Positions 46,525-47,589 of a stretch of 64,000 nucleotides of DNA are shown one piece after another. Numbering within the stretch: position 1 is the first letter of the stretch; each line of letters opens with the position of its first letter. The stretch is from a virus (taxonomy: Duplodnaviria; Caudoviricetes): the IMG/VR virus record IMGVR_UViG_3300037247_001786, positions 288,001-352,000 of that record, one strand, 5' to 3'. The position numbers and the translations under genes were made by a program. A model generated the notes under the pieces. It saw only the letters and a program-made list of their open reading frames with translations. It searched no databases and was not told where the DNA came from.

Positions 46525-47589
46525 ATGAAGAAAAGAATTCTAATATTGACGTTTTTAGTTATTGCAGTCTCAACAACTTTTGGTGAGCCTACAGATACTC
46601 TTCAAATAAAGGTGAAATCTTTTCCTCCTTGCGTCATTATCGAAGACGATGGCACCGTAACAGGCTATGATATTGAAATATGGGAAGCCATCTGTCATGA
46701 GAATAACTGGCAACCCGAATACACGGTCGCCTCCTCTCATAATAATATCTTAAAAGAGTTGGGCGAGAAGAAATTCGATGTTGGTATCGCTGGTTTTACA
46801 AAGACAGAAAGCAGAGAAGAATTAATAGATTTCTCTGATCACTATTTAGATTCTGGTTTAAGAATTCTTACGCTGAAATCTGAACCTGGCATAATAGATA
46901 AGATAGTATCTTTTTGGAACAATATCGATGATACTTTAGCTTTCTATGGCATCTTTTTGATTCTTTTTGCTCATATCGTTTGGGCATTAGAAAGAGATAA
47001 TGACCCCACAAATAATGATGGTAGTTTTGATGATAGTTACTTCGTAGGTATTGCCCAAGCATTATATTATTGCATCGTCACAGCTTCTACAGTCGGATTC
47101 GGAGACTTCACCTGTAAGAAAGCAAGAGGTAAAATATTTACTGTAGTCCTTATCTTTTCAGGTCTCATAGGTTGGAGTAATTTGACGGCTGTTTTATCAT
47201 CGTCTTATACTATTGAGAACCTTTCAGCGATACAGTCCGTTGAAGACTTAAAGGGCAAAACTATCTTGACTCAAGATGGTCCGTCTCTAAAAGTTCTTCA
47301 AGGCATTGGGGCTAATATCAAGTTAGTACCGACAATAGACCAAGCTGTTGATTGGCTTATGTTAGAGAGAGGCGATGCGGTAGTATACGACTCTCCTGTT
47401 ATTTTAGAATATGCAAAGAAGTACCCAGACAAAGTAGAGGTAGTTGGTTACCTGTTTGATAAGCAGTATTATGGTTTCGCTCTTCAAGAGGGAAGTCCGT
47501 TAAGACAAGACGTAAATAAAGCTCTTTTGAAGATTAGAGAGAGTGGTAAATATGATAGTATCCATTTGAAATGGTTTAAGAAGGAGTAG
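46525..47589 (+). CDS. GluR0-like ligand-gated K+ channel (S1-M1-P-M2-S2)
   Basis: Signal peptide; PBP type-2 lobe (PP, GYDIEI, SRE, DFS); TM1; TASTVGFGD filter (47089-47103); TM2; second lobe (EDLKGK, DAVVYD, YGFAL, KWF). Confidence 0.88.
   Translation: MKKRILILTFLVIAVSTTFGEPTDTLQIKVKSFPPCVIIEDDGTVTGYDIEIWEAICHENNWQPEYTVASSHNNILKELGEKKFDVGIAGFTKTESREELIDFSDHYLDSGLRILTLKSEPGIIDKIVSFWNNIDDTLAFYGIFLILFAHIVWALERDNDPTNNDGSFDDSYFVGIAQALYYCIVTASTVGFGDFTCKKARGKIFTVVLIFSGLIGWSNLTAVLSSSYTIENLSAIQSVEDLKGKTILTQDGPSLKVLQGIGANIKLVPTIDQAVDWLMLERGDAVVYDSPVILEYAKKYPDKVEVVGYLFDKQYYGFALQEGSPLRQDVNKALLKIRESGKYDSIHLKWFKKE

Follow-up and report, generated by a model that had tools for sequence, protein, structure and literature searches.

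GluR0-type receptors, as found in Synechocystis PCC 6803 and Nostoc punctiforme, are built from a signal peptide, a first ligand-binding lobe (S1), a transmembrane helix (M1), a P-loop with a K+ signature, a second helix (M2) and a second lobe (S2), with neither an amino-terminal domain nor a third membrane-spanning helix. Experimental proof of this topology exists only for the Synechocystis protein, which rescues E. coli deficient in K+ uptake and makes cells shrink more slowly after KCl upshock (PMC13099474). Among viruses, a 2018 survey of transport proteins found glutamate-receptor-like genes only in chloroviruses, whose products have three predicted transmembrane segments and weak similarity to receptors; phage K+ channels were already on record there (PMC6163359). 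The review Chloroviruses makes no mention of glutamate receptors.

A second line of background concerns the membrane-repair protein PspA. In bacterial operons of the yjfJ type, PspA is accompanied by a K+ channel, DUF350 and DUF2491; these operons have been read as serving stress management (PMC11237479). Modules in which PspA is flanked by membrane proteins have been described in huge phages by Yuan and Chen, whose preprint deals with 7,187 huge-phage genomes. It gives a neighbor of PspA the annotation of transporter substrate-binding protein rather than channel, and nowhere in its text do the terms glutamate, potassium or GluR occur (bioRxiv 10.64898/2026.10.24.761521).

The stretch of DNA analyzed here, hereafter the window, comprises 64,000 nucleotides (positions 288,001 to 352,000) of IMG/VR record IMGVR_UViG_3300037247_001786, a 461-kb phage from marine sediment. 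The window encodes a complete GluR0-type subunit, and its source is a genuine tailed phage: the record spans 460,978 bp with direct terminal repeats, is rated 100% complete by CheckV, and carries genes for a terminase large subunit, a portal protein, a DNA polymerase and a helicase. The preliminary description of this DNA had called the channel phage-encoded, and its reservation that the contig might prove to be cellular is removed by these features. The protein shares with cellular GluR0 the order of elements, its signal peptide being a predicted one, and both absences listed above. It differs in being encoded by a phage, in its linkage to PspA, in a selectivity filter that reads GFG rather than GYG, in an acidic loop between M1 and the pore that is 5–7 residues longer, and in an S2 loop that reads G-P-S-L where its relatives have G-[ST]-T-[SA].

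A complete GluR0-type subunit encoded by a tailed phage

The reading frame around the channel gene is open in translation from 46444 to the stop codon at 47587–47589, and the ATG at 46525 gives a protein of 354 residues with zero internal stops (Table 1). An alternative ATG at 46507 would add six residues; 5 nt ahead of it stands a GGTGA-like ribosome site, and a 360-residue database copy uses this start. In alignments, orthologues start with MKK, as does the product of the 46525 ATG. Pfam model SBP_bac_3 matches residues 31–352 (1.7e-28), split by a match to Ion_trans_2 at 145–225 (3.6e-12); the ligand-binding lobes make up about 230 of the 354 residues. Models Lig_chan-Glu_bd and Lig_chan match as well, both under the Pfam cut-off. 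The best sequence match in the PDB is the Nostoc GluR0 ligand-binding core, 2pyy (1.7e-29), aligned over two stretches, 28–123 and 235–352. A library clustered at 50% identity holds homologues in 423 clusters at E<=1e-30. The likeness of the protein to GluR0-type domains is far beyond chance.

Table 1. Features of the PspA-channel module in the window, with the parts of the channel gene.
Feature	Position	Strand	Basis and remarks
Best sigma-70-like promoter match	43367..43394	+	TTGAAA-16-TATAAT, 11/12, ahead of the module; consensus scan only
Gene for 227-aa membrane protein, conserved first gene of the module	43452..44135	+	N-terminal signal or TM segment, low-complexity basic region, C-terminal TM
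Gene for 224-aa acidic protein, conserved second gene of the module, possibly DUF2491-like	44223..44897	+	Conserved in the same loci as the 227-aa protein
Two overlapping paralogous genes for small 2-TM proteins, 69 and 77 aa	44910..45345	+	Each matches both counterparts in L002-L004
PspA/IM30 gene, conserved upstream partner	45365..46033	+	Pfam PspA_IM30, 5.4e-16, full length
Two small genes between PspA and channel, 47-aa Cys-rich and 88-aa TM	46058..46489	+	TAGGA-type ribosome site each
GluR0-type ligand-gated K+ channel gene	46525..47589	+	354 aa plus stop; alternative start 46507; ORF, Pfam, 2pyy, AF2 model, Foldseek
Predicted signal peptide, residues 1-20	46525..46584	+	n-region KKR, hydrophobic core, small residues ahead of E21; sequence reading and model helix 2-18
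Ligand-binding lobe S1, residues ~24-120, including T92 and R97	46594..46884	+	Aligned to S1 of Nostoc GluR0 core
Pre-M1 and M1 transmembrane helix, residues 123-156	46891..46992	+	Model helix; Ion_trans_2 match begins here
Acidic cytoplasmic M1-to-pore loop, residues 157-171	46993..47037	+	Alignments; pLDDT falls to 78
Pore helix and K+ selectivity filter, residues 172-194	47038..47106	+	Filter TVGFGD at 47089-47106; center of predicted tetramer interface
M2 inner helix, residues 200-230	47122..47214	+	Model helix; tetramer contacts at 217-233
Ligand-binding lobe S2, residues 235-354	47227..47586	+	Aligned to S2 of 2pyy at 5e-20; D289 and loop G252-P-S-L
Downstream genes: 125-aa (3-nt gap after channel), 70-aa TM, 86-aa TM	47593..48492	+	ORFs

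The AF2 model of the protein (pLDDT 94.3) shows an order of elements that agrees with a GluR0-type architecture. Its only helices of membrane length are 2–18, 123–156 and 200–230, and the chain stops three residues past the last helix of S2. The signal peptide is predicted from a reading of the sequence and from the model helix. Pore helix 172–188 is followed by the filter T189-V-G-F-G-D194, and a basic stretch, CKKARGK, precedes M2 on the predicted cytoplasmic side. Foldseek aligns about 370 columns of the model with the ligand-binding and transmembrane core of an AMPA receptor (E 7e-24, TM up to 0.64). Every element of the intact, stop-free architecture that had been read from the DNA alone is present, the signal peptide as a predicted one; Pfam, the 2pyy match, the model and Foldseek support the GluR0-type assignment. 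When four copies of residues 118–236 were modeled together, the predicted tetramer scored an ipSAE of 0.75, against 0.00 for the best control (pLDDT 75–77); three runs agreed in at least 90% of contacts, which centered on residues 188–194 and 217–233. Among proteins of known structure, 21 of 30 that had been solved as pairs of one chain attained the ipSAE mark applied here, and 0 of 23 single-chain ones did. Because solved K+ channel tetramers exist, the result may reflect likeness to them only.

The protein has a core fold in common with the AMPA receptors GluA1-4 at an identity of 22–24%, and HMMER matches to them cover residues 71–248, yet it lacks their amino-terminal domain, M4 helix and C-terminal tail, and it carries a K+ channel filter where eukaryotic receptors have a non-selective Q/R-site pore. 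Its length, its modeled elements and this filter exclude it from the eukaryotic class (AMPA, kainate, NMDA). The ligand-binding lobes likewise exclude the minimal Kcv class, whose members are bare pores of about 80–120 residues, and K+ channels in the BFVD collection of viral structures match the model over only about 80–150 columns at E>=0.008. A protein of the giant virus CroV, the full-length iGluR-like E3T502 (514 aa), matches the whole model (E 3e-25, TM 0.67), a comparison made by fold only. This protein and those of chlorovirus PBCV-1 come from viruses of eukaryotes, unlike the phage protein described here. The earlier view that viral K+ channels are mostly of the Kcv type needs slight correction: phage contigs also encode six-transmembrane Ion_trans channels, and the CroV protein adds a receptor-like form. 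A GFG filter occurs in known K+ channels as well, among them Kcv and channels of the EAG type.

The residues expected to matter for conduction and binding are strongly conserved. Across 148 homologues, T189, G191, G193 and D194 are each kept in at least 90%, R97 likewise in at least 90%, and D289 is invariant; T92 is invariant in alignments of 25. In the alignment to the Nostoc core 2pyy, R97 falls opposite its Arg and D289 opposite its Asp. From general knowledge of ionotropic glutamate receptors, we take R97, T92 and D289 to be the contacts for the alpha-carboxylate and alpha-amino groups of a ligand. The S2 loop varies: it is G-P-S-L in the window protein and in two related phage loci, L002 and L003, is G-T-T-S or a near variant in most other phage copies examined, and conforms to G-[ST]-T-[SA] in cellular copies. 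The loop found in the window's subclade suggests that the ligand is perhaps not glutamate, or that gating is perhaps altered; the change bears on ligand specificity and not on membership in the GluR0 type. In alignments, the longer M1-to-pore loop is seen in the same subclade and in L004. Its acidic residues (157–171) were considered as a calcium site, a reading rejected because their spacing fits neither the EF-hand nor the DxDxDG consensus.

The PspA module and its relatives in phages and cells

As proposed in the preliminary description, viral databases were searched for fusions of a substrate-binding protein with a K+ pore. Full-length relatives emerged from 11 distinct IMG/VR contigs of 40–548 kb, along with several metagenome contigs; the IMG/VR relatives came from an alignment-based scan, a single-protein scan with over-specific patterns having given none. 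Most share one module order: the 227-residue membrane protein, the 224-residue protein, small transmembrane proteins, PspA and then the GluR0 gene. PspA adjoins the GluR0 gene in L002, L003, L004, L006, L017-L020, L028 and L127, and the 227-residue protein is found in the same position at E<=1e-22 in these loci and in L030 (L002-L004, L006, L017-L020, L028, L030, L127). Weaker matches to it (1e-13 to 1e-5) lie elsewhere upstream in L022-L026, and the phage copies L022, L023, L025 and L026 have no adjacent PspA. The 125-residue protein directly after the channel is also found in L002-L004. Similarity to the window falls broadly in step for PspA and GluR0 across loci, which is consistent with joint inheritance. 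In L030, a complete phage of 408 kb, the PspA module is kept, and a six-transmembrane K+ channel stands about 2 kb downstream in place of GluR0.

The phage genome has a single K+ pore gene, the channel gene, and a single PspA gene; about 0.5 kb separates these two, which share one strand, and the gaps between genes there are 17–35 nt. Intergenic gaps throughout the module are 1–47 nt, except for 87 nt after the first gene, and the consensus scan places the next comparable sigma-70-like match at 48496–48523. The arrangement resembles the yjfJ-type operon in uniting PspA_IM30 and a K+ channel gene in one putative operon; the channel of that operon, however, is described as sensing an intracellular ligand (PMC11237479), whereas the ligand domain of the window channel is predicted to be extracellular. 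The 224-residue protein resembles DUF2491 clusters in the Atlas by features (0.91) and structure (TM 0.65), but it lacks a Pfam match to DUF2491, and hhalign of its family against a protein labeled DUF2491 by Pfam gives a probability of 1.6%; neither it, nor the 227-residue protein, nor their homologues have a meaningful match in Pfam or NCBIfam. Pfam finds no DUF350 among the small transmembrane proteins of the module, and neither a CesT/Tir partner nor polyamine genes were found in the window's module. Among related loci, DUF350 occurs near a GluR0 gene alongside PspA in L126 and alongside DUF2491 in L124. The 47- and 88-residue genes had no phmmer match in any related locus searched.

No characterized phage example was known to the author of the preliminary description, and we likewise found none described: full-length phage homologues are missing from GenBank phages, where tblastn returned only pieces of binding proteins, and from BFVD viral structures, and a 15-kb segment around the gene had no megablast match in GenBank phages. 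Identity to named cellular proteins is about 35–40% at best among the matches listed, and in a search of genome contigs for cellular GluR0 most of the matches listed were either simple binding proteins or simple K+ channels.

The phylogeny with bacterial GluR0 that had been called for places the window protein in a clade of 27 rows (SH-aLRT 97), and all eight of these rows whose context is known are phage-like and linked to PspA. Phage and cellular copies interleave over the tree as a whole, and a single clade of PspA-linked phage copies excluding cellular genes is rejected, as the tree needs at least three label changes. That interleaving, together with the overwhelmingly bacterial makeup of the GluR0 family and the existence of cellular relatives at 35–40% identity, is what might be cited for a cellular gene, brought in as a bacterial segment misjoined to a phage contig or as a gene captured from the host very recently and without function. 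The chance of this is extremely small. At least 10 assemblies, independent and drawn from different samples, show the same gene order at 36–81% protein identity, the 27-row clade is phage-like wherever its context is known, the flanking genes all lie tightly packed on the same strand, and the GC, GC3 and trinucleotide usage of the channel gene are typical for the phage genome. ARAGORN found no tRNA in the 64-kb window.

Pairwise dN/dS among the phage channel genes is about 0.12–0.17. The channel gene is under purifying selection and belongs to a PspA-centered membrane module common to many huge phages; the window protein is a phage member of the known GluR0 family in an informative conserved context.

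Proposed role of the channel in the infected cell

Knowledge of the family suggests how the channel would work. After infection, the signal peptide would direct export of the subunit into the host cytoplasmic membrane, where a tetramer would form whose S1-S2 clamshell lies in the periplasm and whose re-entrant TVGFGD filter points toward the cytoplasm. An alpha-amino acid bound through R97, T92 and D289 would close the clamshell and so open a K+-selective pore. PspA seals stressed membranes and preserves the proton-motive force. In the least certain step, channel and PspA would together provide the phage with a route of its own for moving K+ quickly. The infected cell could then maintain its volume, membrane potential and K+ content over a long and costly cycle of infection, with channel opening tied to external amino acids. 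Our analysis favors this reading: the gene probably encodes an exported, amino-acid-gated, tetrameric K+ channel that serves K+ and membrane homeostasis together with PspA. The conserved PspA linkage points to such homeostasis rather than to the uses first proposed, namely a nutrient or neighbor-lysis signal, or superinfection exclusion. Delivery of the channel in the virion, on the model of Kcv, which sits in the inner membrane of chloroviruses, was considered and rejected because tailed phages lack an internal membrane.

The same channel could serve the opposite purpose, as a controlled depolarizing or K+-releasing device that collapses or clamps the membrane potential at a chosen moment; it could thereby time holin triggering and lysis, block entry of superinfecting DNA or shut down host transport, with PspA limiting collateral damage. 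The evidence for channel identity (Pfam, model, Foldseek and tetramer) serves this alternative equally, external gating suits a decision signal, changes in the ligand loop and cytoplasmic loop of the subclade suggest retuned gating, and a use of this kind, superinfection exclusion, had been put forward in the preliminary description. We nevertheless consider it unlikely. The module has no recognizable lysis genes near the channel gene, the conserved partner PspA protects membranes, stress management is the reading given to cellular PspA operons that contain K+ channels (PMC11237479), and the only physiological data on GluR0 favor K+ uptake and volume protection (PMC13099474). Homeostatic and depolarizing roles cannot be told apart by sequence. 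A further proposal, which we hold to be quite unlikely, makes PspA and GluR0 a phage-run sensing circuit in which a periplasmic amino acid gates K+ flux, sets the potential and decides lysis timing or superinfection exclusion; the ligand might come from lysed neighbors or from cell-wall breakdown.

Both roles presuppose a conducting pore, and one phage copy speaks against taking this for granted: in L028 the pore helix and filter are gone, although S1, two transmembrane segments, S2 and the PspA linkage are kept, which suggests that conduction is dispensable in at least some lineages. If the pore were a relic in general, the protein would be a binding protein anchored in the membrane and would serve as a sensor, an amino-acid scavenger or a scaffold of the PspA module, a reading with which the preprint annotation of a PspA neighbor as a transporter substrate-binding protein accords (bioRxiv 10.64898/2026.10.24.761521). 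For the window protein this is very improbable: the filter is intact in it and in every other phage copy examined except L028, filter residues are among the most conserved columns of the 148 sequences, dN/dS is low across the whole gene, and the transmembrane region is predicted to form a tetramer centered on the filter.

Meaning for huge phages

Ligand-gated channels are not known to have been reported as phage genes; the one paper that contains the gene class called it a substrate-binding protein (bioRxiv 10.64898/2026.10.24.761521). The intact channel gene and the PspA pairing kept in related huge phages indicate that these phages probably control host K+ flux or membrane voltage. The favored reading is directly testable by existing GluR0 assays, and the phage proteins, being small (about 350 residues), diverse and naturally varied in the ligand loop, offer material for the study of how a clamshell gates a K+ pore. 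Were the sensing circuit real, it would be a ligand-gated decision system in a bacterial virus, drawn from the ancestor of neuronal glutamate receptors. Taken together, the module, conserved and selected in huge phages of 100–548 kb, the different K+ channel in L030 and the bacterial PspA operons suggest joint management of K+ conductance and membrane repair, a function that huge phages appear to have taken over.

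Architecture and predicted assembly of the channel subunit

The channel gene lies in an open frame that runs from 46444 to a stop at 47587-47589; from the ATG at 46525 the product is 354 residues long, with zero internal stops. An alternative ATG at 46507, with a GGTGA-like ribosome site, would add six residues and is the start of a 360-residue database copy; in alignment, the N-termini of orthologs resemble the 46525 form rather than the longer one. Pfam assigns SBP_bac_3 (1.7e-28) to residues 31-352, split by Ion_trans_2 at 145-225 (3.6e-12), and two eukaryotic glutamate-receptor families also match, sub-threshold. 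The best solved relative by sequence, the ligand-binding core of a Nostoc punctiforme GluR0 homolog (2pyy, 1.7e-29), aligns over residues 28-123 and again over 235-352, exactly the division that S1 and S2 would give; a PDB sequence search aligns AMPA receptors with residues 71-248, from S1 through the pore. The intact GluR0-type architecture claimed in the preliminary description is thus borne out in every detail. The gene is a phage-borne, new member of a known channel family, and the finding is real and correctly identified.

An AlphaFold2 model built from 148 homologs (mean pLDDT 94.3, pTM 0.82) arranges these elements in the order of the GluR0 plan.

Elements of the window protein in the AlphaFold2 model
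Element	Form	Residues
Putative signal peptide	N-terminal helix	2-18
S1	alpha/beta lobe	between N-terminal helix and helix 123-156
Pre-M1 and M1	long helix	123-156
M1-to-pore loop		157-171
Pore helix	helix	172-188
Filter		189-194
M2	helix	200-230
S2	alpha/beta lobe	after M2 helix 200-230

In the PDB, Foldseek ranks GluA1-4 first, matching their ligand-binding and transmembrane cores (E about 1e-23 over about 370 aligned columns, TM at most 0.64). For four chains of residues 118-236 the prediction is an assembly centered on the filter, with an ipSAE of 0.75 against 0.00 for the best control; of proteins solved as one-chain pairs, 21 of 30 reach this mark, and of those solved as single chains, none of 23. 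Contacts, shared to at least 90% between runs, fall at 188-194 and 217-233, with pLDDT of 75-77. Because many K+ channel tetramers have been solved, this prediction may show only a likeness to solved channels.

The channel gene in huge phages

The preliminary description would have been overturned by a cellular contig, and the DNA is viral. The 460,978-bp IMG/VR record, of which the window is bases 288001-352000, has direct terminal repeats (an exact 110-bp repeat), CheckV completeness of 100% and a GC content of 34.3%, and encodes a terminase large subunit (phrog_2, 5e-25), a portal protein (phrog_16240, 1e-49), a DNA polymerase (2e-132) and a helicase (3e-76). Nearly all window ORFs of at least 150 residues lie on the + strand, and the GC, GC3 and trinucleotide usage of the channel gene are ordinary for the genome (z 0.8 and 1.4; 46th percentile). 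A marine sediment metagenome, the sole run containing the whole stretch, may be the source sample. Toward its C-terminus, the portal ORF (L009:381-2678; 71380-73680 of the whole genome) has an HNH-endonuclease-like match (phrog_559, residues 626-720). In another genome compared, G004, the portal match at 68046-72032 falls in three pieces within one 1331-residue open frame, which suggests an insertion such as an intein or homing element.

GluR0-type channels form a large bacterial family, with 423 clusters at E of 1e-30 or below in this analysis; a 2010 survey listed 12 with a K+ filter (PMC2950845). K+ channels have been recorded in viruses, some of them phages, as have glutamate-receptor-like genes in chloroviruses; the 2018 survey that lists them states that a gene similar to the glutamate-receptor-like gene of PBCV-1 is present in no other viruses (PMC6163359). 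The BFVD library yields a single full-length structural match, to a protein from the giant virus CroV. The preliminary description knew of no characterized phage example, and our searches of the literature on GluR0 with phage, or jumbo phage with potassium channel, likewise found no report. The nearest prior art is an October 2026 preprint on huge-phage envelope proteins (bioRxiv 10.64898/2026.10.24.761521), which annotates the neighbor of PspA as a transporter substrate-binding protein. Since the words glutamate, potassium and GluR are absent from its text, the gene class appears to have been seen already but not recognized as a ligand-gated K+ channel, and the ten cases in the preprint are candidate members.

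Relatives in a large protein database, all on metagenome contigs, are 48-81% identical to the window protein, with a next tier at 33-42%. An alignment-based scan of IMG/VR returned full-length relatives on 11 distinct viral contigs of 40-548 kb. The portal of the window's genome has counterparts at 70% identity in the 548-kb record, 60% in a 186-kb record and about 28% in two more, and was undetected in several other GluR0-bearing records, complete ones included; this pattern indicates that more than one lineage of huge phages carries the channel gene. Phage copies compared pairwise have a dN/dS of 0.12-0.17, and dS is near saturation. One GluR0-type copy (L028:7914-8915, on a 100-kb IMG/VR contig) has its pore helix and filter deleted. 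A full-length GluR0-type gene of 36% identity, L044:2977-3996, has no PspA within 3 kb; its 240-kb contig, assigned by binning to a Candidatus Saccharibacteria MAG, is unusually long for such small genomes. Several mid-sized phages (L031-L035, IMG/VR contigs of 18-42 kb) encode a 259-264-residue protein that contains the pore of a K+ channel (phmmer E 4e-8 to 8e-8); the L031 copy, the one run through Pfam, is read there as a 6-TM Ion_trans K+ channel carrying a SHOCT domain at its C-terminus.

Phylogeny placed the window protein in a 27-row clade with support of 99 in FastTree (197 sequences) and 97 in a quick IQ-TREE run (89 sequences). All eight rows of known context in this clade are phage-like and PspA-linked. 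Phage copies L020, L021, L006, L022-L025 and L028 fall outside it, interleaved with the copies on the clearly cellular contigs L005 and L125 (61% GC). The tree, in which genomic context is known for a minority of rows, requires at least three label changes between phage and cellular, which implies repeated gene transfer between cells and phages.

The PspA module

A single K+ pore gene and a single PspA gene are present in the window's genome, about 0.5 kb apart. When window neighbors were searched against the related loci, a recurrent order emerged: 227-residue membrane protein, 224-residue protein, small TM proteins, PspA, GluR0. It is kept in L002, L003, L004, L006, L017-L020, L028 and L127, partial in L021, where the contig end cuts the locus, and weak in L024. 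Three contigs with relatives at 74%, 70% and 50% identity share the same neighbors on the same strand, PspA immediately upstream and the channel gene amid small unannotated genes; contigs of 54 kb and 114 kb, whose relatives are only 36-37% identical, have the same arrangement with PspA directly upstream. Across loci, the similarity of PspA and of GluR0 to the window copies drops broadly in parallel. A strong promoter-like site at 43367-43394 starts the module, and the next such site is at 48496-48523; intergenic gaps are 1-47 nt, except for 87 nt after the first gene, and a scan of the module found no convincing terminator between its genes.

PspA is full-length by Pfam (5.4e-16). In the ESM Atlas the 224-residue protein comes close to DUF2491 clusters (0.91; TM 0.65), a link not confirmed by Pfam or profile comparison. 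Elsewhere, a GluR0 gene lies beside Pfam-labelled DUF350 and PspA (L126:3189-7541, 43% GC), and another adjoins DUF2491 (L124:2606-5435). These neighbors are noteworthy because their families occur in bacterial yjfJ-type operons, in which a survey of PspA neighborhoods places PspA alongside DUF350, DUF1190, DUF2491 and a potassium channel that senses a ligand inside the cell (PMC11237479). At L030:2865-8354, in a 408,349-bp IMG/VR record complete by CheckV, the 227-residue, 224-residue and PspA genes stand as in the window, and a 272-residue 6-TM Ion_trans/Ion_trans_2 K+ channel follows about 2 kb later in place of GluR0; it looks as if one channel type has been replaced by another. Together, L030 and the yjfJ-type operons suggest that the recurring partnership is PspA with a K+ channel, the sensor domain being exchangeable.

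Between PspA and the channel, 46058-46489 encodes a 47-residue Cys-rich protein and an 88-residue TM protein, each with a TAGGA-type ribosome site and neither with a counterpart in any related locus searched. Two overlapping genes at 44910-45345 encode small 2-TM proteins (69 and 77 residues) that are mutual paralogs, conserved in the close relatives L002-L004. Just upstream of the promoter-like site, 42721-43356 encodes a 211-residue protein with a sub-threshold HD_4 match, strongly conserved in L002 (E 5e-93) and L003 (1e-115).

Ligand site and proposed role

D289 is invariant across the 148 homologs, R97, T189, G191, G193 and D194 are each kept in at least 90% of them, and T92 never varies in the 25 closer sequences. 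The Arg and Asp of the Nostoc core correspond in alignment to R97 and D289, residues that we take to hold the alpha-carboxylate and alpha-amino groups of the ligand, as in ionotropic glutamate receptors generally. The window protein and its nearest relatives, L002 and L003, share a GFG rather than GYG filter, an acidic M1-to-pore loop 5-7 residues longer (as also in L004), and G-P-S-L in the S2 loop, where the remaining copies, phage as well as cellular, have G-T-T-S or similar. By alignment, the window's subclade has its own changes in ligand loop and cytoplasmic loop. The residues that bind the ligand backbone are kept, and a loop facing the side chain differs. An amino acid is the probable ligand, though not necessarily glutamate.

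In a 2026 study GluR0, whose N- and C-termini face out, gives K+ uptake in K+-uptake-deficient E. coli and slows shrinkage after KCl upshock, an effect that glutamate enhances (PMC13099474). We propose that a tetrameric channel, its ligand domain in the periplasm, would be inserted by the phage into the inner membrane of the host, a predicted step well supported by homology; that an amino acid would open it; and that channel and PspA would together let the phage control K+, cell volume and membrane potential through a long infection. This three-step reading as a whole we hold to be somewhat favored, its physiological purpose being what we infer. The main rival, rather unlikely in our estimate, is that the same channel depolarizes at a chosen moment, to time lysis or to exclude superinfecting phages. 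Only L028, whose copy is without pore helix and filter, suggests a non-conducting sensor or scaffold. For the proposed control of K+, volume and potential, the conserved PspA module around the channel gives a testable functional hypothesis.
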